32,000 bases of DNA from Candidatus Harpocratesius repetitus (lineage in GTDB: Archaea > Asgardarchaeota > Lokiarchaeia > Sigyniarchaeales > Promethearchaeaceae), in assembly GCA_021498095.1 (NCBI GenBank), contig JAIZWK010000001.1:3030001-3062000 (forward strand). Direction: 5' to 3'. The notes below the pieces were generated by a model that saw nothing but the letters and a program-made list of their open reading frames with translations, searched no databases and had not been told where the DNA came from. This document shows, piece after piece, positions 12,084 through 24,798 of this stretch. Position 1 is the first letter of the stretch. Each line of letters begins with the position of its first letter. The translations under genes and the position numbers were made by a program.

Positions 12084-12091
12084 TTTAAATA
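12084..12091 (+). promoter_or_regulatory. Candidate TATA box for the ileS leader transcript
   Basis: TTTAAATA ends about 30 nt before the leader ATG at 12121, compatible with a near-leaderless start. Confidence 0.35.
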
Positions 12092-12120: not shown

Positions 12121-12210
12121 ATGCCCGCGTCTGAAACATCTATTCTTATTTCTATATCAACGGAGTTGTTTAAGATCATCTCAGGCGCTATTATTCAAAT
12201 TATCGCATAA
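12121..12210 (+). CDS. Putative Ile-rich leader peptide of ileS (MPASETSILISISTELFKIISGAIIQIIA)
   Basis: ATG...TAA, 29 aa, 9 Ile including three Ile-Ile pairs, 292 nt upstream of ileS on the same strand. Confidence 0.7.
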   Translation: MPASETSILISISTELFKIISGAIIQIIA

Positions 12211-12352
12211 CACTTTTCATTGGCTCCCTAAAATTATCTTGTTTCAGACGCAAGTATTAATATTAAACACTATCAAAAAGAAATTAAATTTCTTATTCAT
12301 TTGTTAGGGAGATCAAAGTCAATGAAATCAGATGAATAATTCTGAAATAAGA
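12121..12352 (+). promoter_or_regulatory. Putative attenuator with alternative helices in the ileS leader
   Basis: Complementary pairs read directly from the sequence: 12127-38/12240-51 (12 bp perfect), 12215-31/12304-27 (9+8 bp), 12237-48/12341-52 (12 bp, one G-U), 12293-303/12329-39 (11 bp, one G-U). Confidence 0.6.
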
Positions 12353-12502
12353 AAATGCGTTGAAATTTGAAAGAATTCAATAAAAAAAGCAAGTGTGATT
12401 CAATTATCTTTTTTTAAGATGAAAATTTGTTCATCATATTAAACAATCCACCTAAATCTTAAATTGATTAAATGGCGGGAACTTTAAAAATTTCAATAAT
12501 AT

Positions 12503-15500
12503 ATGAAAATATTTGAGGAAAAAACAATGAAACCCTTAGGAAATCTAAATTTACTAAAAATTGAAGAAGATATATTAGAATGGTGGGAGAAACAGAAAAT
12601 CTATGAAAAAATAAAAGCTCAAGAACCAGCTGATGAAGAAAAAACTTTTAGATTTATTGATGGCCCACCATATACTACAGGTGATGTCCATTTAGGCACT
12701 GCATGGAATAAAATAATGAAAGATCTTGTCATTAAATATAAAAGAATGCAAGGATTTCGTGTAACTGATACTCCTGGTTATGACACTCATGGTTTACCAA
12801 TTGAAGTTGTAACAGAAAAGAAATTGGGAATTAAAAATAAGCAAGAGATTAAGACGTTTGGATTGGATAAGTTTATTTCAGAATGCAGAGCTTATGCTGA
12901 AAGTAAAATTCCCAGTATGAATGAACAATTCAAGCGTCTTGGTTGCACTTTCTGGGACTGGGATAATCCTTATGTAACATTAAAAAATACATATATTCAA
13001 GGTATCTGGTGGACTCTTAAACGTGCATGGGAAAATGGGTATTTATACAAATTCTATAAACCCCAAAACTGCTGTCCACGATGTGCAACTGCTTTAGCCA
13101 AACATGAATATGAATATCATGATATTACTGATACAGCTATTTTTGTCAAATTTCAATCAGTTGATGATCCTAAAACGTTTTTCATTATTTGGACTACAAC
13201 ACCTTGGACCTTAATCAGCAATACAAATATTATGGCCAACCCAGATGTTGAATATGTCAAAATGCGTGTAAAAGACGAATACTGGATAATGGCAATTGCA
13301 GCTACTTCAGATCTCCTCCAAAATAAATTAGGATTGGTAGTAAATGCAGAAGAGGGTTTTTCATATGGAGAACGTTATACTGGACGCGATCTTGAAGGAA
13401 AACGCTATATTCATCCTTTTGCAGATTTAATACCAAAACAATTAGAATTAGAAAAAGAACAACCATTAGTTCACACAATCATCCTTTCTCACGAATATGT
13501 CCAAGAAACTGGGGGAAGTGGGTTAGTTCACACTGCACCTGGACACGGTCCTGAAGATTTCGAAGTTGGTGTTTCCTATAATATACCGATTTATTCACCA
13601 GTCGCTATGGATGGAACTTATACGAACGATGCAGGAGAATACTTTAAAGGTAAGTATGTGCATGATGCAAATCACGAAATCATTGAAATGCTCCGCAAAC
13701 GGGGAACATTAGTTCATGAAGATTCAATTTCACATGAATATGCACATTGTTGGCGCTGTCATACTAAACTCGTATATAGAGCCACCGAGCAATGGTTTTT
13801 CAAGACATCAGCACTGCGAGATGAAATGTTAAAAGAAAATGATGAAATATTTTGGATACCTGAGTATGCAGGTGCCACAAATTTCAAATCATGGTTAACC
13901 AGTTTACAAGATTGGTGTATTTCACGACAACGATACTGGGGAATTCCCCTCTCAATTTGGACCTGTGAAAATCCAGAATGTGATAATATGCATGTAATTG
14001 GTTCAATGGAAGAATTACGAGAAATCGCAGGAACTTGTCCTGAAGATATCCACAAACCTTGGATTGACGAAGTTACATGGAAATGTGATAAATGTGGAAT
14101 GAAGATGACCCGTATTCCAGATGTTATGGATGTTTGGCTTGATTCTGGATCGGTAATGTGGGCGTCACATAAATTTGTTGATGGGCATGAACATTATGAT
14201 TCATGGGTTCCCGCAGATTTTATTCTTGAAGGAAAAGATCAAATCCGAGGTTGGTTTAACTCTTTATTATGTAGTGCTATGGTCTCTACTAAGAAGAGAA
14301 ATTACAACGTTTGCTATATGCACGGATGGGTAACTAGTCATGGAACGAAAATGTCTAAATCTTTAGGAAATGCCTTAGACCCACAAGATGTCATTAATGG
14401 AAATATAGAAATTTTAACAGAAAAACAAAAAGAATATTTACGAGAATTGGCAGCGGATGAACGTACGTCTAAATTCGATAAAACAAAACAAAAATCAAGT
14501 AAAAACAAGAAACACTGGAAACCAAAATATATAAAAGATGATAGACGCTGGTCAATGATTAAAGGAATTGAAACATTCAGATTTTATTCAGTAATGGGCA
14601 CTCCCCCGGGAAAAGATTTAAATTTTGATTACAAAGAATATACAGATACGTTTAAAGTCTTAAATACAATTTGGAATACATTTAAATTTGCCCAAGAAAA
14701 AATGAAATTAAATGACTTTCATCCTAAGACACATTTGATCAAAAAAGATGAACTTTCTGCAGCAGATAAATGGATTCTGGCTCGAACAAATAGTTTGATT
14801 CGTACAATAACGGATTATTTTGAAAAATTTGAATTACCATCAATTCCTGCTACTTTACAAAATTTCATATTAAATGATCTCTCTCGCTGGTACATCACCA
14901 TTATACGAGATCAAGTTGAACCATCAAATAAAGATCCTTCAAAATACACCACTTTGGCAGTACTTTGGCATGTATTATATCGTGTGCTACTATTACTTGC
15001 TCCGGTTAATCCAATGTTGAGTGAAGAGATCTATCAAAAAATATTTCGTTCAGAATTATCAGATCAGTTAAAACTCTCAATTCATTTAGAACAATGGCCA
15101 AAACCATCACTTGAATACGATAATCATGAAATTGAAGAAGAAATGGCGACTGCTCGTAGAATAATTGATGAAGTGCGTTCATTAAAATCTGAACATAAAA
15201 TAAAACTTCGCTGGCCTACAAAGGGATTAATTATCGTTCCTAAAAATGACAACCCTAAACCTTCATTCCCACAATTGATTCAAGAAATGAGTAATGTAAA
15301 GCAAATAAAAATCAGAAAAACTCACCCGAAAAATCCAGATTATTTATCCACAGAATGGGGAGAGTACGCAATTTATTTGGATTTAGAAGAATCAGAAGAA
15401 ATTCAACAAGAGCGAATTTTACGAGATTTGCTTCGAACTATTCAATTTCTCCGTAAAAATGCAAAATTACAAACAGGAGAATCCATTGAACTTCACTTAA

Positions 15501-15787
15501 GCACAAAACATCCTTTTCTTTTAAAAACGATAAAAGATAATGCTGAAGCAATTAAAATAAAGGTCACAGCGAATCCGATGGATTTTTCACCTGTATCAAA
15601 CCCTAATCTTGATAATTGGACCCGCCATGGTTTCAATGTCTGCTTAAATGAGAATTGCTATTCAGTAGTTAGAGATAAAAACGTTCAAGCAATCCATAAA
15701 GGAGAAAGTTATAAGTGCAGCTATTGTGGTAAATTAGTTACCCTAGAAAAATTGGGTGAAATTCAGATTGAATTTAAAAAGAATTAA
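12503..15787 (+). CDS. ileS: Isoleucyl-tRNA synthetase, archaeal/eukaryal type
   Basis: DGPPYTTGDVHLGT (HIGH), GYDTHGLPIE, WTTTPWTL, GSGLVHTAPGHG, DWCISRQRYWG, EGKDQIRGWF, KMSKS. The start may be ATG 12527, which is preceded by TGAGG. Confidence 0.97.
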   Translation: MKIFEEKTMKPLGNLNLLKIEEDILEWWEKQKIYEKIKAQEPADEEKTFRFIDGPPYTTGDVHLGTAWNKIMKDLVIKYKRMQGFRVTDTPGYDTHGLPIEVVTEKKLGIKNKQEIKTFGLDKFISECRAYAESKIPSMNEQFKRLGCTFWDWDNPYVTLKNTYIQGIWWTLKRAWENGYLYKFYKPQNCCPRCATALAKHEYEYHDITDTAIFVKFQSVDDPKTFFIIWTTTPWTLISNTNIMANPDVEYVKMRVKDEYWIMAIAATSDLLQNKLGLVVNAEEGFSYGERYTGRDLEGKRYIHPFADLIPKQLELEKEQPLVHTIILSHEYVQETGGSGLVHTAPGHGPEDFEVGVSYNIPIYSPVAMDGTYTNDAGEYFKGKYVHDANHEIIEMLRKRGTLVHEDSISHEYAHCWRCHTKLVYRATEQWFFKTSALRDEMLKENDEIFWIPEYAGATNFKSWLTSLQDWCISRQRYWGIPLSIWTCENPECDNMHVIGSMEELREIAGTCPEDIHKPWIDEVTWKCDKCGMKMTRIPDVMDVWLDSGSVMWASHKFVDGHEHYDSWVPADFILEGKDQIRGWFNSLLCSAMVSTKKRNYNVCYMHGWVTSHGTKMSKSLGNALDPQDVINGNIEILTEKQKEYLRELAADERTSKFDKTKQKSSKNKKHWKPKYIKDDRRWSMIKGIETFRFYSVMGTPPGKDLNFDYKEYTDTFKVLNTIWNTFKFAQEKMKLNDFHPKTHLIKKDELSAADKWILARTNSLIRTITDYFEKFELPSIPATLQNFILNDLSRWYITIIRDQVEPSNKDPSKYTTLAVLWHVLYRVLLLLAPVNPMLSEEIYQKIFRSELSDQLKLSIHLEQWPKPSLEYDNHEIEEEMATARRIIDEVRSLKSEHKIKLRWPTKGLIIVPKNDNPKPSFPQLIQEMSNVKQIKIRKTHPKNPDYLSTEWGEYAIYLDLEESEEIQQERILRDLLRTIQFLRKNAKLQTGESIELHLSTKHPFLLKTIKDNAEAIKIKVTANPMDFSPVSNPNLDNWTRHGFNVCLNENCYSVVRDKNVQAIHKGESYKCSYCGKLVTLEKLGEIQIEFKKN

Positions 15788-15829
15788 CTAAAATTTGAAA
15801 GTTAAAAAAAATTTTTTATTTTTTATTTT

Positions 15830-16087
15830 TTAATCATATCTTTTATATTTATCAATTATCACTTTACTAAGCGAATAGGCGTATTTCTTCAAATCGAGAA
15901 TTAATTTTTGCTGAGATAATTCACGTAAAACTGAAACGTATAAAGAATTGAATAATTCTTCTAGTTGCTCAATTTTATCAAAAATATCAGTAATTTTTTT
16001 CCAATCTTGAGCCCATTCTTCATCCCAAGCTTCGTCATATATGGTTTTATATGGAAAAAACATAGAAGAAATTGCTTCTGGTGCCAT
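15830..16087 (-). CDS. Small hypothetical helical protein
   Basis: 85-aa ORF with protein-like composition, convergent with ileS. Confidence 0.55.
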   Translation of the reverse strand: MAPEAISSMFFPYKTIYDEAWDEEWAQDWKKITDIFDKIEQLEELFNSLYVSVLRELSQQKLILDLKKYAYSLSKVIIDKYKRYD

Positions 16088-16175
16088 TATATTCTCATAC
16101 TAGTTGATTTACTAAGCTCTTATAAATATATGCATCTTTGATTTATTTTAAAATAAAAAATCTATTATGATTTAA

Positions 16176-16928
16176 TCAATTTAAAGGAATATTAAATGTG
16201 TTGGAATAATACATTTCAGGAGGATTTACTATTTTATGGGATAAATTTTCCTTAAATTGAGGAAAGCGCCGATGAAATGATTCTGTATTCAATAATGGCC
16301 AATCTCTAAAAAGTAAAAGTGAACTTAGTGGTTTTTTGCCTATTTGTCGGTAATCCAATTTAATTGTATTTCTCAAAGCATCGAGATCAAATAAGGAAAT
16401 AATCTCAGATGAAGAGAGTACATCCAAAAAGCGAATATAATATCGCAGTAAATCATCACTGGTATCAATATCATTCTGCGATTGGTATTCTTGACAAATT
16501 GCATGTTCTAACAAAGAAGGATAAGATTGATGCTCCCACATAATTACATTAGTTAGGAGAATGAATATTTCATCTAAATCTAATTTAAAATAAATTGTTT
16601 GATAAAGAATATTCATATAATCAAGTGGAATATCATCTTTATCCTTATATTTCTGCTGACGTTTGAAAGACTCAATAAAAGTACTGTAATTACAATGGAC
16701 GAAAGGTCTTAATACAGTATTAAAAAATATTTCATGTTTTTCAGAACGTAAAAATACCAATATTGCTCGATACAAATAATTTTGCATCTTCTTAACACGA
16801 GATCGTGTGCGGGTGCAGTTTTTCCATTTTTCTGAGAAAGGATTGCTTTTCGCTCTATGATTATATTCAAGTTCAAATATAGTCATATCGAGCAATTCAT
16901 GCATCATTTCGAAAATCAATTCTTTCAT
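16176..16928 (-). CDS. Hypothetical protein
   Basis: 250-aa ORF. No motif recognised. Confidence 0.5.
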   Translation of the reverse strand: MKELIFEMMHELLDMTIFELEYNHRAKSNPFSEKWKNCTRTRSRVKKMQNYLYRAILVFLRSEKHEIFFNTVLRPFVHCNYSTFIESFKRQQKYKDKDDIPLDYMNILYQTIYFKLDLDEIFILLTNVIMWEHQSYPSLLEHAICQEYQSQNDIDTSDDLLRYYIRFLDVLSSSEIISLFDLDALRNTIKLDYRQIGKKPLSSLLLFRDWPLLNTESFHRRFPQFKENLSHKIVNPPEMYYSNTFNIPLN

Positions 16929-17739
16929 TTTGAGGTCACCAAAAAGAAGTACTTTGAAAAATTCTCACACCTACATCCATATACTCATTTAGGCAATTTA
17001 ATATTTTCTGGTTTGTATTCACTAAACGCCAGAAAGTTAGTGGGAACTTCATCCCAATGAAAAATAAAAAGGGTTTAACTTACCTATATTAATCCGTTAT
17101 TATACAAGTAAAGAATATCTTCGTAATTTTAGAAGAATTGGCTATTTTTAATTACGAAGGATCAATTCATTGACACCTCGGTTTGAATTTTTTTCCCCAA
17201 TTTTTCGTTTAATTGAAATAATAGTTTAATTATTGAATTGTTCTATACATTAAATAGAATTTTGGGGCTAAATTGGTGTGGAACAATGGCTATTCCTAAG
17301 ATTTCGGATTCATTTGTGATTTTAATATATACTCGAAGTCACTGTTCTAAGCCTTCATGTGTTTTAATAACAGTTAAATACACGCGAATCTCAATCACAC
17401 TAATCATATTCTCTGCAGGATAAATCGATATAACTTTTGCACACATAGTCTTGTATTTTCTTGATAGCAACTGTAACTGCGAAAAGCATATTTTTTGCTA
17501 GTTTGAGAGTTTTATAAAAAAATCAATTTTTGCATATCCTTGCTTTTCTTTGTCAAAAGCTTTAAAATATTGTATGTTTTGCTTTCAAGTTTCAATTATG
17601 TTGCCAAAAAAAAATATTTGAAAGATAATTTGGGAATAATTTAAAAAATATGGCTTCTCTTAATTGATCCTTTATCCTTAAAAATAGTCGAAGAATTGTA
17701 AAAAAATTATTAAATTTAGAGAAACAATAAATCCTTAGT

Positions 17740-18510
17740 GTGAAAAATTCAACTGAAATGCGGATTTCTCATCATTTTCAATACAATCACTCAGATTGTA
17801 CCATTATTTCGAATAACCGAGAGAATATCGAAAAATCTAAAGCCAAATTTTATAATGATATTAAAGAACTCGAAAATTTTGTTAATATTCATAAAGATTG
17901 GAGAAACTCATATATTCCTCTTCTAAGTCAACCTGCAGCTAATAAAAATTCATTAATTTATACAATGGAACAAGCCAGTCTTAAATGTAATGTTGGACCA
18001 ATGGCAGCTGTTGCTGGTGCAATAGCAGATAGAATGGTTTCAGCAATGATTCAAAATCCAAAAACAACCATCGCTGTAGTTGAGAATGGTGGTGAAATTT
18101 CCATAAATTCTAAAGAAGATATTATTATTGGATTAATGGTTTTATCAACAACATTACAATCAAAACTCGGTTTTAGATATAAAGGTGGGACAAGACCAAT
18201 TGGAGTAGCAACCAGCTCATCTACTTTCGGTCATGCAGAGAGTTTTGGAGAAGCAGATGCAGTAGTGGTTTTTGCCTCTAATGCGGCTTTAGCAGATGCA
18301 GCTGCAACCTATATTTGTAATAATGTTAAGGGAAAAGAGGATAAAGAGGCAATAAATGCAGGTTTGGAAGTATTTGATTCAATTCCACAATTATTAGGTG
18401 TATTAATAGTAAAAAATCAGCTGATTGGAAAAAAAGGGAAATTACCTACTCTAATCAGAATCAAAGATGAAAAGAATATTCTACTGCAAAAAAAAATTGA
18501 AAATATATAG
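17740..18510 (+). CDS. UPF0280 / COG2122 ApbE-like protein (MA1715-type sulfide-assimilation factor)
   Basis: GPMAAVAGAIAD, VENGGEI, TSSSTFGHAESFGEADAVVVFA, AALADAAAT. Confidence 0.88.
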   Translation: MKNSTEMRISHHFQYNHSDCTIISNNRENIEKSKAKFYNDIKELENFVNIHKDWRNSYIPLLSQPAANKNSLIYTMEQASLKCNVGPMAAVAGAIADRMVSAMIQNPKTTIAVVENGGEISINSKEDIIIGLMVLSTTLQSKLGFRYKGGTRPIGVATSSSTFGHAESFGEADAVVVFASNAALADAAATYICNNVKGKEDKEAINAGLEVFDSIPQLLGVLIVKNQLIGKKGKLPTLIRIKDEKNILLQKKIENI

Positions 18511-18567
18511 GGTTTTAAGGTATTTTGGAAAAAAAAATATCAAAAATTTCATTTTTTTTTTTAACTT

Positions 18568-18777
18568 TCATGTTATGTAAAGTGCTCGGCGAGGACATGC
18601 ATCTAAACATAACATACATCCTTTACAATTTTCAGCTTTGAATAAAAACGAATAATTGTTGTCAAAACTCAATGCTCCGAATCTACAGTACGATGTACAC
18701 CAACCACATTCAACACATAAGTCTTTATTAAACTGTATCGATTTTTTGTTGATTTGTGCTGAGTTCATATTATGCAT
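18568..18777 (-). CDS. 2x[4Fe-4S] ferredoxin, MA1822-like partner of the homocysteine synthase
   Basis: CVECGWCTSYC and CKGCMLCLDACP motifs. Its start overlaps the stop of the COG1900 gene, with GGAGG upstream. Confidence 0.85.
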   Translation of the reverse strand: MHNMNSAQINKKSIQFNKDLCVECGWCTSYCRFGALSFDNNYSFLFKAENCKGCMLCLDACPRRALYIT

Positions 18778-19894
18778 CCTCCAATTGATAAGTTTTAAAA
18801 CTTTGTTTTATTGACAAATTCTGGATGGGTTTGATAATTGGAATTCTTTTTTCTTCAACCATTTTTTTTAATAATCTTGTAATAATACGGGCTTTCCTAT
18901 AGGATGAAGTGGATGAAACAGGGACAATCTTTCCATCTATCTCAATTTGTCTTGATTTTAACTCAGCATAAGACACACTACGAATTAAAGGGCGTTCTCT
19001 TTTTCCTGTAGAATAATCTAAAACATTAGTAAATATTTCACTATCAGGTGTACCGCTTGTTCTTGCTAGAGATTCATTCAAAATAGGAATTGGAATACCT
19101 AATCCAATAAAGCAACTATATCCATAACCCTTTAAAAATGCACCTGCAAGAAATTCTGGAGTCATTTTCTTTAAATCCCCTGATACCATTAAATTACCCC
19201 ATTCTGATTCAGGATTATGTTGAGTTCCAGAACCGATGATATGTCCAACCGTACCACCTAAAAAAACAGGAGTTCCAATTCCTATTGTTTGATAAGTTGG
19301 ATCATTGTTTAATGGAGATAATGTGCCTACACCTCCATATGTACCATTTTGATACTTGGGAAGAAGTTTCCCCATATAAGTATACAATATTTCACCAGAT
19401 GAATTAACTGCACAAATATATTTTTGATATGCATTACGGGGATTGATCATTATTGCTTGATTAAAATCTTGAAGCCCTAAAGAAACATCAAATGATTTTC
19501 GAGGATAGCAATCAGTTCCAGTCCCTGTAGAGTGAATTGACACATTTTCTCCTTTGACCAGTTTTTCGAGAACGTGACCCCCACCAACTTTATCAAAAAC
19601 TCGACTACCTTGAGTTACACCTAAATAACAATCAGCTGCAGCATTTCCATGATACGCATTTACTCCATCAATTTCAATAGTTTCAATTTTGATTGGTGGA
19701 TCAGGCTGTGGTAAATTAAAGAATACACCGCTTGAACACATACAACCAAATGTTCCAGTGGTAACAACATCTACGGCTTCTGCAGCATATTCCACTCCTT
19801 CTTTCTCAACCAATGAAACCATTTCTTCTGCTGTTAATATTACTGCAGTCCCATCATGAATTTTTGAATTAATATCTTCATATGTTTTCTCCAA
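18770..19894 (-). CDS. L-aspartate-semialdehyde sulfurtransferase / homocysteine biosynthesis protein (COG1900/DUF39, MA1821/MJ0100-type), without CBS domains
   Basis: KTYEDINSKI..GTAVILTAEEM, VDVVTTGTFGCMCSSG, NPRNAYQ, SPLNNDP..TIGIGT.VFLGG. TTG start preceded by GGAGG. Confidence 0.9.
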   Translation of the reverse strand: MEKTYEDINSKIHDGTAVILTAEEMVSLVEKEGVEYAAEAVDVVTTGTFGCMCSSGVFFNLPQPDPPIKIETIEIDGVNAYHGNAAADCYLGVTQGSRVFDKVGGGHVLEKLVKGENVSIHSTGTGTDCYPRKSFDVSLGLQDFNQAIMINPRNAYQKYICAVNSSGEILYTYMGKLLPKYQNGTYGGVGTLSPLNNDPTYQTIGIGTPVFLGGTVGHIIGSGTQHNPESEWGNLMVSGDLKKMTPEFLAGAFLKGYGYSCFIGLGIPIPILNESLARTSGTPDSEIFTNVLDYSTGKRERPLIRSVSYAELKSRQIEIDGKIVPVSSTSSYRKARIITRLLKKMVEEKRIPIIKPIQNLSIKQSFKTYQLEDA

Positions 19895-19896
19895 TT

Positions 19897-21381
19897 TTAT
19901 TCCTCCGTTTTCTTTTTTGCATAACCATCTTTATTGCACTCATCAGAAAATATTAGATTTATTTCATTTGCAACTATTGGAATAAATTCACGATTAAGAA
20001 CTATCGAAACAGTTATTCCATTATAATCTTGCAAAATTCCATGAATTTGTATTCCATGCTTTTTTAAAATTTGTCCAATCTTTGAAACAATTTCAGCTTG
20101 GTAAAAAGATTCAGTTATGATTGTAATGATTCCAACTGATTCTATGCTAATTTTTAACCATTCCCTTTGTATCTGTGATTTATAACAAAATTCTTCCAAT
20201 TTTTTTCTGATATTTGAATCTTTAGAGCATAATAATAACCTATTTTGAGAAAATGTTTGCTGAAAGAGTGAAATATGCCAATTTTTTTTAATGAAATATG
20301 AAAATAATTCCATTAGGAATGTTGATTCTTGGAATAGAAATGGGGATTTGAGAATTATTAAGTAAGAAGACTTTGTTATTTCAATCCCTTTTATAGGAAT
20401 TTCCATGCTTTGTGATGAAATATAGGTAAAATTTGAACTCTTTGGTTTATGAAAATGACGTATTTCAATGGGAATCATTTGATCTTCAATAATGCTTATA
20501 CATTTTGGATGTAGAATTTTAGCTCCAAGAACTGCAATTTCTTTTGCTTCTTTATAATTGAGTTTTTGAATTAAATGTGGATCTTGAATATATTCAGGAT
20601 TACCAGAAAGTACACCAGGAACATCTTTCCAAAGGATAATTCTTCCCTCGTGAAAGAGATTCAAGTCAAATAGCATACGACCAATGATGGTAGCTGTAAA
20701 ATCACTTCCACCCCTTCCTAATGTAGTGGTATAGCCAATTTTATTTCGACCAATAAAACCTGTGATTACAATAACTTGATGATTTCGATTATTTAAGAGT
20801 AATGGAAGTAATTTTTGGTTAATACGAGCTTGCGTGTGTTGAAGATTAGGAATTGCCTTATTATATTCGCTGTTTGTAATGATTAATTCTTCACCAAAAA
20901 ATACTGATGAAGTAAAGTTTTCTTGTTTTAAATATAAATTAACCAAAGTAGCGCAAAGTTTTTCACCAAACGACATTACATAATCGATAAAATAAGGAAT
21001 TATTCCAAATTCTTCCACTTCTTCTAAAACTTTTGCAAGCTGATGTAATATAAGTTGGAGTTCTCCTTTGGCACTGTTAGTTACCTTAAAATTCTCTTCA
21101 AATAATAAATCAATGTACTCTTCATGAATTTCTTCGATTTGTTTTAAACGAGAAATTACATCATGTCCAGATCCTTTACTCGCTAAATTGGTTACTTCAA
21201 TTAATAAGTCGGTTACTCCTTTCAATGCTGAAACTACTAAAATAATAGAAATAGGAATGCTATTTTGTTGATAGTATGTCCGAATAATGCTTTTAATCTG
21301 CTTAAAATCAGAAGGTTCAGTTAAACACGACCCACCAAATTTCATAATAAATACTTTATTAGGATTTTCTTGTTCATTCAT
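19897..21381 (-). CDS. ask: Aspartate kinase with C-terminal ACT-like region
   Basis: MKFGGS, VVSALKGVTDLL, SFGEKL, TTLGRGGSDFTA, WKDVPGV. The start overlaps the asd stop (ATGA), with AGGAGG upstream. Confidence 0.92.
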   Translation of the reverse strand: MNEQENPNKVFIMKFGGSCLTEPSDFKQIKSIIRTYYQQNSIPISIILVVSALKGVTDLLIEVTNLASKGSGHDVISRLKQIEEIHEEYIDLLFEENFKVTNSAKGELQLILHQLAKVLEEVEEFGIIPYFIDYVMSFGEKLCATLVNLYLKQENFTSSVFFGEELIITNSEYNKAIPNLQHTQARINQKLLPLLLNNRNHQVIVITGFIGRNKIGYTTTLGRGGSDFTATIIGRMLFDLNLFHEGRIILWKDVPGVLSGNPEYIQDPHLIQKLNYKEAKEIAVLGAKILHPKCISIIEDQMIPIEIRHFHKPKSSNFTYISSQSMEIPIKGIEITKSSYLIILKSPFLFQESTFLMELFSYFIKKNWHISLFQQTFSQNRLLLCSKDSNIRKKLEEFCYKSQIQREWLKISIESVGIITIITESFYQAEIVSKIGQILKKHGIQIHGILQDYNGITVSIVLNREFIPIVANEINLIFSDECNKDGYAKKKTEE

Positions 21382-22583
21382 TGATTTTTCCTCCTAATAA
21401 TTCCTTTAGCATAAAGATATTCTGCATTAAGAACTGCACCTCTCCCTGCACCCAATTCAGTATTATGAGATAAAACGGTCATTTTAAAACCTTTTTCAAA
21501 GTTTGTGGGTTCTAATCCACCAATAAATGTAGTCATACCAAGAGATCGATCTACTAATTCTATTCTGGGCTGAGGTCTATCTCTTTCAGCAGATGAAAAG
21601 AGATGGATGGGTACTTTGGGATAATTGGGAAGATTCATACCATTAATTGTGTTTCCTTCCTTATTTTGATTAAAATCATCAAAACATTGCCGAATTTCTT
21701 CTTCGGAACAGTCAATTTTTGTTTGGAAAAATATTGATAATAAATGACCCTCTAAAACAGGAACCCGATTACATTTAGAGTCAATTTTAAATTCTGGATA
21801 AATAAAAATCGATTTTTCTGAAATACTATTTATTTTTTCCTGAAATCCATCTTTACTTATTTTTGCAAATATTTTTTTTATTTCATAATTGACTTTCTTT
21901 TCTTCTTCAGGAATATAAGGAATAATATTGCCGATTATATCATAAGCACTCACACCAGCATATCCTGCTCCACTAATTGCTTGCATTGAAACAACATTCA
22001 CAGATTGTAATCCAAATTTACGAAAAATTGGATATAACGCAATAGCAAGACCAACAGTAGTACAATTTGGACCAGGACAAACAAATCCTCGAGAATTGTT
22101 GATATATCTTTGGATTTCAAATGCTTGGAAGTGAGATCCATTAATAATAGGAAGAAATATTGGAATTTCTGGTTTATAACGCGCCCATGATGCAGTTGAA
22201 AACACAGGATAGTTTTGAGCTAACAAGGGTTCGAGTTCTGCTGCATATTCTGAAGGAATTGCAGAAAAAATTATATCTATTTCTTCTTTATTTATGTCAT
22301 CTGGTGATTTTACAATCATCTCAGCAATTTCTTTTGGCAAATATAGATTTGAAGTACCTCTTCGACCATATTTATATTTTTTTCCTACTGTTCCAAAACC
22401 ATGAAGTGAAGAAATTTGAAACCAAGGATGTTTAACTAAAGCTTCGACTATAGATTGCCCAACTAATCCAGTACAACCTATTATTGCAGCTTTCAACTTT
22501 TGCTTAGGATTTAAAGTTATAGTTACTAAAGGATTTTCTTCTTTCATATTTTCTGGATTTTTATTTTTATTTTCTTGATTCAT
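21378..22583 (-). CDS. asd: Aspartate-semialdehyde dehydrogenase, archaeal/fungal type
   Basis: IIGCTGLVGQ, PNCTT (catalytic Cys), SMQAISGAG, RVPVLEGH, SHNTELGA (catalytic His). Confidence 0.95.
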   Translation of the reverse strand: MNQENKNKNPENMKEENPLVTITLNPKQKLKAAIIGCTGLVGQSIVEALVKHPWFQISSLHGFGTVGKKYKYGRRGTSNLYLPKEIAEMIVKSPDDINKEEIDIIFSAIPSEYAAELEPLLAQNYPVFSTASWARYKPEIPIFLPIINGSHFQAFEIQRYINNSRGFVCPGPNCTTVGLAIALYPIFRKFGLQSVNVVSMQAISGAGYAGVSAYDIIGNIIPYIPEEEKKVNYEIKKIFAKISKDGFQEKINSISEKSIFIYPEFKIDSKCNRVPVLEGHLLSIFFQTKIDCSEEEIRQCFDDFNQNKEGNTINGMNLPNYPKVPIHLFSSAERDRPQPRIELVDRSLGMTTFIGGLEPTNFEKGFKMTVLSHNTELGAGRGAVLNAEYLYAKGIIRRKNQ

Positions 22584-22590
22584 TGTTATT

Positions 22591-22599
22591 TCTCCTTCT
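22591..22599 (-). promoter_or_regulatory. Shine-Dalgarno-like site of asd (AGAAGGAGA)
   Basis: Purine-rich GGAG 7 nt upstream of the asd ATG. Confidence 0.65.
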
Positions 22600-22630
22600 A
22601 TTTGTAATGTTTTTTAATTCTATAATGTTT

Positions 22631-22804
22631 TTCTGAAATCAAAATGCTATCGATTCATTTCAGAACTTAATACTTGTTCCAAAATTATGTTTATAGAGAT
22701 AATCTAATGGAAATGCACAGAAAATTGATTCTATCGCCCAGTTCTCATCGGCGATACTTTCTGTGTTCAAGCACAATCACAAAAGAAGAGAGAGCGATCG
22801 AATC
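22631..22804 (-). promoter_or_regulatory. Putative attenuator with mutually exclusive helices between the Met leader and asd
   Basis: Segment 22792-804 pairs with 22727-39 (12 of 13 positions). This competes with the hairpin 22750-56/22732-38 plus 22758-65/22716-23. A separate 9-bp hairpin lies at 22657-65/22631-39. Confidence 0.7.
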
Positions 22805-22812
22805 TTGTTTAC

Positions 22813-22896
22813 TTATGCCATTACCATTAACATGGACATCATCATCATGGTCGATGGCATCTGAGACATCATTTGCATATCCCACATGCTTCCCAT
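22813..22896 (-). CDS. Putative Met-rich leader peptide (MGSMWDMQMMSQMPSTMMMMSMLMVMA) of the asd-ask-homocysteine operon
   Basis: 27 aa with 13 ATG codons including a run of four, ending 229 nt upstream of asd on the same strand. An in-frame upstream ATG at 22932 would give 39 aa. Confidence 0.85.
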   Translation of the reverse strand: MGSMWDMQMMSQMPSTMMMMSMLMVMA

Positions 22897-23052
22897 GATT
22901 GTTTCTAGGTAAACATTAGAATCGAATCGCATTCTTATTTATTTTGTATAAAGCATACTTTAAGAAATTATTGATGGAAATAAAATATGATAAATTTTAG
23001 TTAAACGTCAATATTTCAAATGTCAAAATAACATTACTAAATAAATGATCGC

Positions 23053-23391
23053 TTAACCACCACCAATCGGAGGAAATATTGCCACAACCGATGGATTCTC
23101 TTCAATTCGAGTTGCAAGTGCTAATTCTGAAAATAGAATGCGGCCGTTTAAAATAATTTTAACATACTTTTTTAACTGTTCAGGTTGAGTTGAAAAATCA
23201 ATTATTTCTTCTAAAAATTCCCGATTATAGAGAATTGATTGTGAAATCTCATCTAACAACTCTCTTATCGTGATTCCTTTTGAAACAGAATAAATACGTT
23301 TTTTGAATTTTGTCAATGGGCGTAGATTTGCAAAAACTCGAACTTCGACTGAAACTCTTTCACTTATTTCTTCATCTACTTTAGAATCCAT
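23053..23391 (-). CDS. moaD: MoaD/ThiS/SAMP ubiquitin-like sulfur carrier
   Basis: VEVRVFANLR beta-grasp start, ILNGR, and C-terminal VAIFPPIGGG. Confidence 0.85.
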   Translation of the reverse strand: MDSKVDEEISERVSVEVRVFANLRPLTKFKKRIYSVSKGITIRELLDEISQSILYNREFLEEIIDFSTQPEQLKKYVKIILNGRILFSELALATRIEENPSVVAIFPPIGGG

Positions 23392-23490
23392 TTTTTATCA
23401 TTCATTCAATTAAATACTTCAAATTTAAGATATCATCGTAATATAGTATATAACTTTAATCATTTATTTATATCATTTTAATAGACTAAA

Positions 23491-24798
23491 TTAAATATCA
23501 AATAAACATTTAACAAACCCAACACTATAAAGACATTCATTACAACCAGGAGTATTTCCATAACAATCGCTTGAATTATCGGTAATATAATAACAATTTT
23601 GAGTGGAATATACACAATCTCCACAGAATGGTACCTGCCTGGAAATAGAATTTAAAACAGAATGAATCCGTTTTACTTTGCTTGACTGTAATATATCTTT
23701 GAATGAAATATTTGGATCATTAAGATTTCCCAGAATATAGGGTTTTACTAATCGTTCATGATGATTTATAACAACTTTATGTTCATGACCAAAATTATAG
23801 CATGGAATAACATTTCCATCAAATGAAATAAATAATCCATTACGAGCTGCAAATGGACATTCTCGCTGAGTTGATTCTGCAAAAAGTGGAGGTAAATCTA
23901 TCAGAATATGATTTTTTTCTGCTAAATTAGAGATTTCTTTAAAAACACGTTGAGCATTTTTAATCGTTTGCTTCTTTTGAATAACATCCATAATTTTTTG
24001 TAAATCGAAATCAATATTATTTATCTGGGCTTCAGAAATAGAATTTAATATTTGCTGGATTTGAGAATTGTGCTCAGAATTTATAAATTTATGATAATTA
24101 GGGGTAAGAATTACTTGATTTAATATTTCCCAACCTAATTCTCCAATTTTATCTAATAAAGTAAATGCATCAGCTGATATTGGAAGAAATAAAGAATCTT
24201 TTTCCATTTCAACAGTGTAAGGAAGAAGATGAGATAGAAATATTTTTGGAATTCCCATCTCTGCACAAAATTCAACCAAATATGAAAGATCATACAGATT
24301 TTGCTTTGATACAACCGTTTCAATTGCAAGATCGGGAATTTTTCCTGATTGATATGCTTCAGCTAAAACCTTTAAATTTTTAAATACTTCTGGATTGAAT
24401 CCTTCTCGCATTTTGCGACTCTTGGCTAAAAATGGTGAATCAACTGAAATAATAATTCGATCTACCTTATATTTTAAGATTTTTTCAAGAAAGTCTGCCG
24501 TCAACAAAGATCCATTACTAGTAAATTCAATCTTTGCATGAGGAGGAAGATAAGTCCGTGATATATCCAAAAGGGTAAGAAAATTTGGATGTGTAAGTGG
24601 TTCACCAACACCATATAAAATAAGATGATCTAATCCAGAAAATACTTCTTTAGCAATTTTTGTAAATAAATCGATTGATATCTCATTACGCTCTAGAGAA
24701 TTTTGAGCATGTAGGCACATGGCACAATCAAAATTACATTTAGTGGTGATCTCAATTTGTAAGGTTTTCAAAGAGAACGAATTCATTAATAACTTCAC
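23491..24798 (-). CDS. Radical SAM/SPASM protein, tungsten-cofactor oxidoreductase maturase type
   Basis: EITTKCNFDCAMC (CxxxCxxC), YGVGEPLTHP, FTSNGSLL, Cys-rich C-terminus (CPF, IPCY, CGDC, SDCYGNTPGCNEC), directly downstream of aor. Confidence 0.85.
   Translation of the reverse strand: MKLLMNSFSLKTLQIEITTKCNFDCAMCLHAQNSLERNEISIDLFTKIAKEVFSGLDHLILYGVGEPLTHPNFLTLLDISRTYLPPHAKIEFTSNGSLLTADFLEKILKYKVDRIIISVDSPFLAKSRKMREGFNPEVFKNLKVLAEAYQSGKIPDLAIETVVSKQNLYDLSYLVEFCAEMGIPKIFLSHLLPYTVEMEKDSLFLPISADAFTLLDKIGELGWEILNQVILTPNYHKFINSEHNSQIQQILNSISEAQINNIDFDLQKIMDVIQKKQTIKNAQRVFKEISNLAEKNHILIDLPPLFAESTQRECPFAARNGLFISFDGNVIPCYNFGHEHKVVINHHERLVKPYILGNLNDPNISFKDILQSSKVKRIHSVLNSISRQVPFCGDCVYSTQNCYYITDNSSDCYGNTPGCNECLYSVGFVKCLFDI

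Follow-up and report, generated by a model that had tools for sequence, protein, structure and literature searches.

The window analysed is a stretch of 32,000 nucleotides of Candidatus Harpocratesius repetitus (GCA_021498095.1, contig JAIZWK010000001.1, positions 3,030,001 to 3,062,000 of the forward strand), and all coordinates are given within it. On the forward strand lies ileS (isoleucyl-tRNA synthetase, 12527-15787), identified by Pfam matches to tRNA-synt_1 plus Anticodon_1; the likely start is the ATG at 12527 with the SD GAGGA at 12515-12519, both conserved in relatives, although the first ATG of the frame is at 12503. On the reverse strand lie asd (22583-21378), an amino-acid kinase (21381-19897) and HcyBio (PF01837, 19894-18770), also identified by Pfam matches and together spanning 18770-22583. 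Each of these units is preceded by a short upstream reading frame (uORF) enriched in the amino acid that matches the downstream gene.

The Ile uORF (12121-12210, +) comprises 29 codons plus TAA with 9 Ile and ends in Ile-Ile-Ala, its last sense codons being ATT ATT CAA ATT ATC GCA, of which the Ile codon run occupies 12190-12204. It lies 292-316 nt before ileS, and a TATA-like box, TTTAAATA (12084-12091), whose role as a promoter is inferred, is located about 30 nt before it. The Met uORF (22932-22813, -) starts at a conserved ATG at 22932, giving 39 codons plus TAA with 14 Met, and not the 27 codons counted from an internal ATG in the first-pass annotation. It ends in Met-Ala-TAA, 229 nt before asd, and the box TAATTTCTTAAA (22959-22970, -), shared with the related genome G002 and likewise only inferred to be a promoter, is present about 30 nt upstream. 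Both uORFs are present where the first-pass annotation placed them, and its observation is confirmed. The Ala-TAA ending which it took as common to both is, however, not conserved, as the Ile leader of the related genome G010 ends in Arg-TAG and the Met leader of G002 in Leu-TAA.

The Met uORF ranks first of 6889 intergenic ATG small ORFs of the genome for single-residue bias (p=1.3e-13), whereas the Ile bias alone is weak (p=0.005) and becomes convincing only through conservation. The Ile uORF is conserved in G002 and G010. The Met uORF is conserved upstream of orthologous asd in genus g1 (3 species) and genus g6 (2 genomes plus a metagenome contig), and is exactly 39 codons long in five of these six despite divergent sequence. 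A search for related loci with the single asd protein returned nothing, and with an alignment it returned mostly Nitrososphaerota and added only one new leader. The gene upstream of the Met uORF differs between the genera (radical SAM plus ThiS versus ferritin), so the uORF travels with asd. A radical SAM/SPASM gene and a ThiS-like gene lie directly upstream in all three g1 species, which raises the possibility that the Met-rich frame is a precursor peptide (RiPP) of the neighbouring enzyme. This reading was rejected as very unlikely, since in g6 the same leader sits between a ferritin gene and asd with no radical SAM gene within the 1.5 kb examined, and a promoter-like box lies between ThiS and the uORF.

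In the ileS leader, arm 1 (12127-12138, GCGUCUGAAACA, codons 3-6 of the uORF) can pair either with arm 2 (12181-12188, UCAGGCGC; −14.2 kcal/mol), directly 5' of the Ile codon run and at the same position in G002 and G010, or with arm 4 (12240-12251, UGUUUCAGACGC; −20.8 kcal/mol), a perfect 12-bp match. Arm 4 lies inside the loop of helix P3, formed by 12214-12231, which starts 4 nt after the stop, and 12304-12329, containing GGGAGAU (−19.1 kcal/mol); an equivalent helix is present in G002. A helix arm starts 4-12 nt after the stop of the Ile uORF. Arm 5 (12338-12350, UCUGAAAUAAGA) is an alternative partner of arm 4 (−14.5 kcal/mol). A T7 tract at 12409-12415, with T6-T7 at the equivalent place in G002 and G010, is a candidate archaeal oligo-T termination site, a function that is inferred.

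The Met leader folds at z=−4.9 against shuffles. Its helix P1 is formed by a 5' arm starting inside the start codon (22920-22930, -, GCGAUUCGAUU) and a 3' arm starting 8 nt after the stop (22794-22805, -, AGAUUCGAUCGC). The helix joining the uORF start to the post-stop segment shows compensatory changes in both leaders, as evident from its extension, GAAACA/UGUUUC in the present genome (G000) versus GUUA/UAAC in G010 for Ile, and from three different extensions across g1 and g6 for Met. Mutually exclusive helices, one of which overlaps or abuts the regulatory codons, are present in the Ile leaders, while in the Met leader only P1 and downstream helices are seen. A pyrimidine-rich anti-SD segment abutting P1 (22776-22793, -) pairs with the asd SD region (22591-22608, -; GGAGA at 22596-22592) at −17.8 kcal/mol (p=0.003 against shuffles), in G000 only; this helix is absent in G002 and G001, and g6 has a different, local anti-SD hairpin.

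The first-pass annotation also noticed helices with a UCUGAAA/UUUCAGA core in both leaders (12130-36 with 12242-48 and 12341-47; 22632-38 with 22658-64), and these are present; in the Met leader the core forms a hairpin (22632-22664, -), a similar one being found in G002. Such an inverted TCTGAAA/TTTCAGA pair within 130 nt occurs in only 3 intergenic places in the genome, two of which are these leaders, but the motif is not conserved in the G010 orthologue. Its suggested role as a shared protein-binding element is a conjecture.

The first-pass annotation proposed a possible genome-wide leader-peptide attenuation system in Asgard archaea, two cognate matches 10 kb apart being unlikely to be coincidence and predicting more such leaders. 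That interpretation is partly supported, the prediction of further leaders being borne out in related Promethearchaeota but not as a genome-wide system in this genome. A non-orthologous (type-B) IleRS is preceded by a 24-codon uORF ending in III(I) in 30 of 30 species. All indels inside this uORF are multiples of 3 (only 3, 6 or 12 nt), and arm 1 again has two exclusive partners, with covariation (C-G 16 / U-A 9, pair counts computed by script) and isoenergetic states. A Val-run uORF with its own SD precedes valS in 4 g6 genomes, and a Leu-run uORF precedes leuS in 3 genomes of genus g13. When aaRS sets and asd were cross-tabulated against the enriched residue, the table was almost purely diagonal. 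The two IleRS sets score only for Ile (5 and 29 loci, two of the five in the first set being out-of-frame ORFs inside an upstream gene), ValRS gives Val 4 / Leu 1, asd gives Met 3 / Leu 1 / Phe 1, and antisense controls give 4 hits in total.

In the present genome, on the other hand, twelve other aaRS genes have no cognate uORF, most having under 160 nt of upstream space, and residue-biased uORFs are as common antisense as sense (146 vs 156). Only the Met uORF stands out in the genome-wide residue-bias scan, and the next most biased sense uORFs precede methionine aminopeptidase, an aminotransferase, a nuclease-like protein and a lipid synthase, none of them cognate. A genome-wide scan for helices enclosing a uORF ranked the two leaders 29 and 81 of 7184, but the statistic is noisy and no further cognate leader emerged. 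MetRS has no Met leader in 30 species, and the leaders are patchy, being absent in several genera of the same family. With 31% GC, many small ORFs and the weak Ile bias, chance open frames in AT-rich spacers might be considered; conservation across genera and families, constant length, covariation and the diagonal cross-table with its almost empty antisense controls effectively refute this.

These observations suggest, with a probability of about 0.75, that both elements are cis-acting leader peptides at the 5' end of the mRNAs of ileS and asd-ask-HcyBio, which report the supply of charged tRNA-Ile or tRNA-Met through ribosome position and so select between competing helices. In this view, a ribosome loads on the uORF while the leader is still being transcribed, and the speed at which it crosses the C-terminal run of cognate codons decides which helices can form. 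In the ileS leader, a ribosome stalled on the Ile codons would cover arm 2 and shift the fold from 1:2 plus P3 (or 4:5) to 1:4. In the Met leader, P1 closes the whole uORF, a ribosome held on the last Met codons would abut its 3' arm, and in G000 P1 would stack on the helix that buries the asd Shine-Dalgarno sequence. The analysis itself establishes the uORFs, their cognate bias and conservation, the in-frame indels and the competing helices with covariation, the latter within the limits given above for Met; translation, ribosome stalling, coupling of the ribosome to the polymerase and the direction of the switch are inferred from sequence alone. The output could be translation initiation of the main gene, or archaeal oligo-T or factor-dependent termination. 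In type-B leaders, ileS SD accessibility does not change consistently between the two states, and the region downstream of the switch has no consensus structure and could be a second promoter.

That the uORFs encode small peptides acting in their own right, such as hydrophobic membrane peptides or type I toxin-like proteins, and that their position next to aaRS genes has no regulatory meaning, is unlikely. The Ile-, Val- and Leu-rich tails do resemble membrane segments, and a 5'-3' fold-back helix hiding the SD or AUG is present, as in type I toxin mRNAs. However, the dominant residue matches the downstream gene in five of five independent leader families, the Met-rich peptide is not membrane-like, and the peptide sequence outside the run diverges freely between genera while the run, the length and the helices persist. 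Moreover, the uORFs always lie on the sense strand, 100-300 nt before the cognate gene. Equally unlikely are RNA-only switches binding a ligand, protein or tRNA with an incidental reading frame, for which the strong structure, competing helices, invariant nucleotides (the Ile run ATTATTATTA is invariant at the nucleotide level in 30 species) and the shared TCTGAAA/TTTCAGA pair could be cited. Against this, the frame is kept in all 30 type-B leaders, start codons (ATG or GTG) and stop codons vary while the frame stays open, the SD of the Val leader is at the correct spacing, nearly all ATGs in the Met leader are in frame, and neither leader has an Rfam match, T-box included, at gathering score or at E<=1.

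The leaders share with bacterial ribosome-mediated attenuators (trp, his, leu, thr and ilv operons, and pheST with the pheM leader, the precedent for an aaRS controlled in this way) a short ORF with a run of codons cognate to the regulated gene, overlapped by mutually exclusive helices in the Ile leaders. They differ in that the organism is an archaeon, a helix closes the whole uORF, and no terminator hairpin with a U tract is present: a scan for bacterial promoters and terminators gave 0 terminator-like sites in either leader, where only plain T tracts occur, and promoter-like hits at the level of shuffles. No Met-codon leader is known to us among the classical bacterial examples, and none was found in the literature searched. 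Translational attenuation (ermC and cat type) and mycobacterial poly-Cys leaderless uORFs (bioRxiv 10.1101/834739) resemble the case as proposed here in that a stalled ribosome on a short leader ORF changes downstream expression without an intrinsic terminator, the uORF has little or no 5' leader, and cognate codon runs precede biosynthesis genes. Here, however, burial of the main-gene SD is supported only for G000 asd and, by a different local hairpin, in g6, and the spacers are long (90-300 nt). T-box riboswitches on bacterial ileS, valS and leuS have the same class of targets and the physiological signal that is inferred here, tRNA charging, but sensing here would be by a translating ribosome and not by direct tRNA binding. 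Eukaryotic uORF control (GCN4/ATF4, CPA1 arginine attenuator peptide), whose origin the first-pass annotation linked to these leaders as a conjecture, tunes amino-acid-related genes through uORFs, as is inferred for the present leaders, but works by reinitiation or by a specific nascent peptide and not by cognate codon runs with competing helices.

Leader-peptide attenuation is a textbook bacterial mechanism which depends on a ribosome following the polymerase closely, and no amino-acid-sensing leader peptide in any archaeon was found in the full-text literature searched; one tool paper only states in general terms that uORFs regulate genes in archaea. A broader reading, judged only somewhat more likely than not, is that Promethearchaeota use ribosome-read leader peptides of a shared closed-loop design, the uORF start pairing with the post-stop segment, as sensors of tRNA charging for Ile, Val, Leu and Met, with an output through archaeal machinery (SD occlusion, oligo-T or factor-dependent termination) rather than a bacterial terminator. 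This would be the first leader-peptide attenuation system in Archaea, found in the lineage closest to eukaryotes. Five conserved, cognate families would show that this logic operates in the closest prokaryotic relatives of eukaryotes and would give a concrete in vivo read-out of transcription-translation coupling in Asgard archaea. They also provide compact natural sensors (90-120 nt of uORF plus defined helices) amenable to reporters, and the lack of a bacterial terminator means that the output step may reveal an archaeal way of linking ribosome position to gene expression. A further candidate in this genome, a 31-codon frame with two Trp plus a hairpin before trpB2, is weak.

The two leaders were examined in a complete genome of 4.36 Mb with 31% GC (designated G000), whose nearest relatives are recorded as Promethearchaeota. 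On the plus strand, an ORF of 29 codons plus TAA at 12121-12210 contains 9 Ile, and its last seven sense codons read Ile-Ile-Gln-Ile-Ile-Ala; it lies about 300 nt before an isoleucyl-tRNA synthetase gene. On the minus strand, an ORF of 39 codons plus TAA at 22932-22813 contains 14 Met, including a run of four, and lies 229 nt before asd, an amino-acid kinase and a homocysteine-synthesis gene of family PF01837. The first-pass annotation had counted the latter uORF from an internal ATG, whereas the orthologues fix its start at 22932. The presence of both elements, as observed in that annotation, is confirmed. When 6889 ATG small ORFs were listed in intergenic DNA after a crude calling of genes, the Met uORF was found to be the most residue-biased of all (p=1.3e-13). 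The Ile uORF is not remarkable by composition alone (p=0.005), and the case for it rests on conservation.

Orthologous asd genes (over 50% identity) in the two other species of the genus (g1) carry Met-rich uORFs at the same place, as do two genomes of a second genus (g6) and one metagenome contig. The uORF is exactly 39 codons in five of six cases, although the peptide sequences differ greatly between genera. A helix, P1, pairs the bases right after the AUG with a segment 6-15 nt after the stop; its core (GCGAU/AUCGC) is constant, while its extension differs in a compensatory way in each lineage. Furthermore, the whole G000 leader folds far better than shuffles (-98.1 kcal/mol, z=-4.9). The upstream neighbours are a radical SAM/SPASM gene and a ThiS-like gene in genus g1, but ferritin in g6; the uORF therefore belongs with asd and is not a precursor peptide for the radical SAM enzyme. 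The ThiS-like and radical SAM/SPASM genes (23053-24798, minus strand) lie directly upstream of the asd-ask-HcyBio cluster in all three species of the genus, which may be a sulfur-carrier link to homocysteine synthesis. In G010, a genome of another genus, asd (locus L006) is followed by dapA (DHDPS), and the tail of a uORF about 75-190 nt before asd mixes Met with a Lys-Lys-Lys run; it may be a Lys/Met leader for a diaminopimelate operon, as judged from this single sequence.

The Ile uORF and its helices recur in G002 (same genus) and in G010. Arm 1, at codons 3-6 (GCGUCUG...), pairs perfectly over 12 bp with arm 4, about 30 nt after the stop, and in G010 the outer part of this helix has changed on both sides. 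Arm 1 can instead pair with arm 2, which in all three species ends immediately before the Ile codons; the energies are -10 to -14 kcal/mol for arm 2, against -17 to -21 for arm 4. Arm 4 lies inside another helix, P3 (12214-31 with 12304-29), and also has a third possible partner at 12338-50. At 12323-12340 (plus strand), the GGGAGAU in the 3' arm of P3 is followed after 9-10 nt by an ATG, which opens a 5-codon ORF in G000 and, in G002 (locus L032), a 39-codon ORF whose stop overlaps the ileS start (ATGA), and this may be a second, coupled uORF. Just after ileS, at 15909-15992 (plus strand), lies a weak C/D-box snoRNA-like match (RF01212, 30.4 bits, E=0.15), which is below the gathering score.

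Both leaders contain a UCUGAAA/UUUCAGA core. This inverted pair within 130 nt occurs 30 times in the genome and only three times in intergenic DNA; two of those three are these leaders, and the third lies in a repeat-rich region unrelated to leaders. The core is kept in G002 but not in G010, and it may reflect either chance or a shared factor.

The first-pass annotation had also predicted further leaders of this kind, as part of a possible genome-wide system, and had named a scan for them as a test. In this genome the prediction fails. Twelve other aaRS genes (two Tyr/Trp-type, Met, Leu, Val, probable Cys and six class IIb enzymes) have no cognate uORF, and most have almost no upstream space. 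Biased uORFs are no more common on the sense strand than on the antisense strand (156 vs 146), and the next best sense candidates precede unrelated genes. A 31-codon ORF at 598110-598260 of the G000 contig C1, with two Trp near its end and its stop inside a 14-bp hairpin, lies about 390 nt before a TrpB-like gene, but it is weak by composition.

In the wider order, however, the prediction succeeds. A second IleRS (type B), only 31% identical to the one here, carries a 24-codon uORF (21-28 codons in a few species) about 175-250 nt upstream, which occurs in all 30 species examined, from two genera, and almost always ends in three or four Ile codons. Every indel within that uORF is a multiple of three, one species uses GTG as the start, and stop codons vary. 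A segment just 5' of its AUG pairs either with codons directly before the Ile run or with a segment after the stop, and all 30 sequences can form both pairings; one position switches between C-G (16 species) and U-A (9 species). A hairpin, P2, which shows covariation, encloses the distal partner. The two folds are equal in energy on average (-43.3 against -44.1 kcal/mol). This is the same topology as that of the G000 ileS leader, without sequence similarity. In the last ~25 columns of the type-B alignment (loci L055, L221-L249), the codon aligned with the ATG start of ileS in genus g15 is ATT or ATA in most species of genus g9, 6-7 nt after a conserved GGTG, which may be a non-AUG start.

In genus g6, valS is preceded by a 30-codon uORF with its own Shine-Dalgarno (SD) sequence, ending in eight Val within ten codons; its SD region pairs with the post-stop segment, and its AUG region pairs with the Val run. 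In genus g13, leuS is preceded by a 26-codon uORF with a Leu/Val tail, and a helix joins codons 2-5 to a segment 2 nt after the stop. The LeuRS of G000 itself (C1, 1351818-1354634; locus L250) scores as the bacterial type (TIGR00396, 967 bits) rather than the archaeal type (317 bits). MetRS, taken as a negative control, shows nothing in 30 species. A cross-table of gene set against residue was built with the criterion of at least five of one residue in the last ten codons of a 15-60 codon sense uORF. The table is almost purely diagonal, and the antisense controls give four hits in all. Of the five hits for the type-A IleRS, two are out-of-frame ORFs inside an upstream gene, so three are real. 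Species within a genus are not independent; the fair count is five independent leader families, all cognate.

The sequences themselves establish short ORFs at the start of the leader, kept in frame, a cognate codon run at their 3' end, and helices with competing partners. The latter are so placed that a ribosome on the run would cover one partner (arm 2 in the Ile leaders) or abut the 3' arm of P1 (Met, Val and Leu leaders, where the arm starts 2-8 nt after the stop). It is inferred from this arrangement that ribosomes most likely stall on the run when the cognate charged tRNA is scarce, which would redirect folding. As P1 hides the uORF start or its SD once formed, loading probably happens during transcription, which is likewise an inference. 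As regards the output of such a switch, a scan of the leaders revealed no bacterial-type terminator, and no Rfam family was matched. In G000 the segment next to P1 buries the asd SD in the predicted fold (-17.8 kcal/mol, p=0.003), but this helix is lacking in G002 and in the related genome G001, while genus g6 has a different, local anti-SD hairpin. The ileS leaders contain T6-T10 tracts, which could be archaeal oligo-T termination sites, though in type B the tract sits in a conserved, unstructured AT-rich block that could equally be a second promoter.

The logic matches that of bacterial leader-peptide attenuation, for which the pheST operon is the precedent of a synthetase controlled in this way. 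The defining terminator is absent, and these elements are therefore not assigned to that family. They resemble terminator-independent uORF attenuators, such as the mycobacterial poly-Cys uORFs (bioRxiv 10.1101/834739). Full-text literature searches found no paper describing such leaders in archaea. The interpretation offered in the first-pass annotation is supported in part: it is right about what the two elements are and about the existence of more of them in the clade, it is wrong that this genome has a genome-wide system, and its claims about eukaryotic origins remain conjecture.

Elsewhere in the G000 genome (C1, 3855000-3855560), more than a dozen copies of GTTGATC/GATCAAC flank an AT-rich core between two genes; they look like origin-recognition-box repeats, which makes this region a candidate replication origin.
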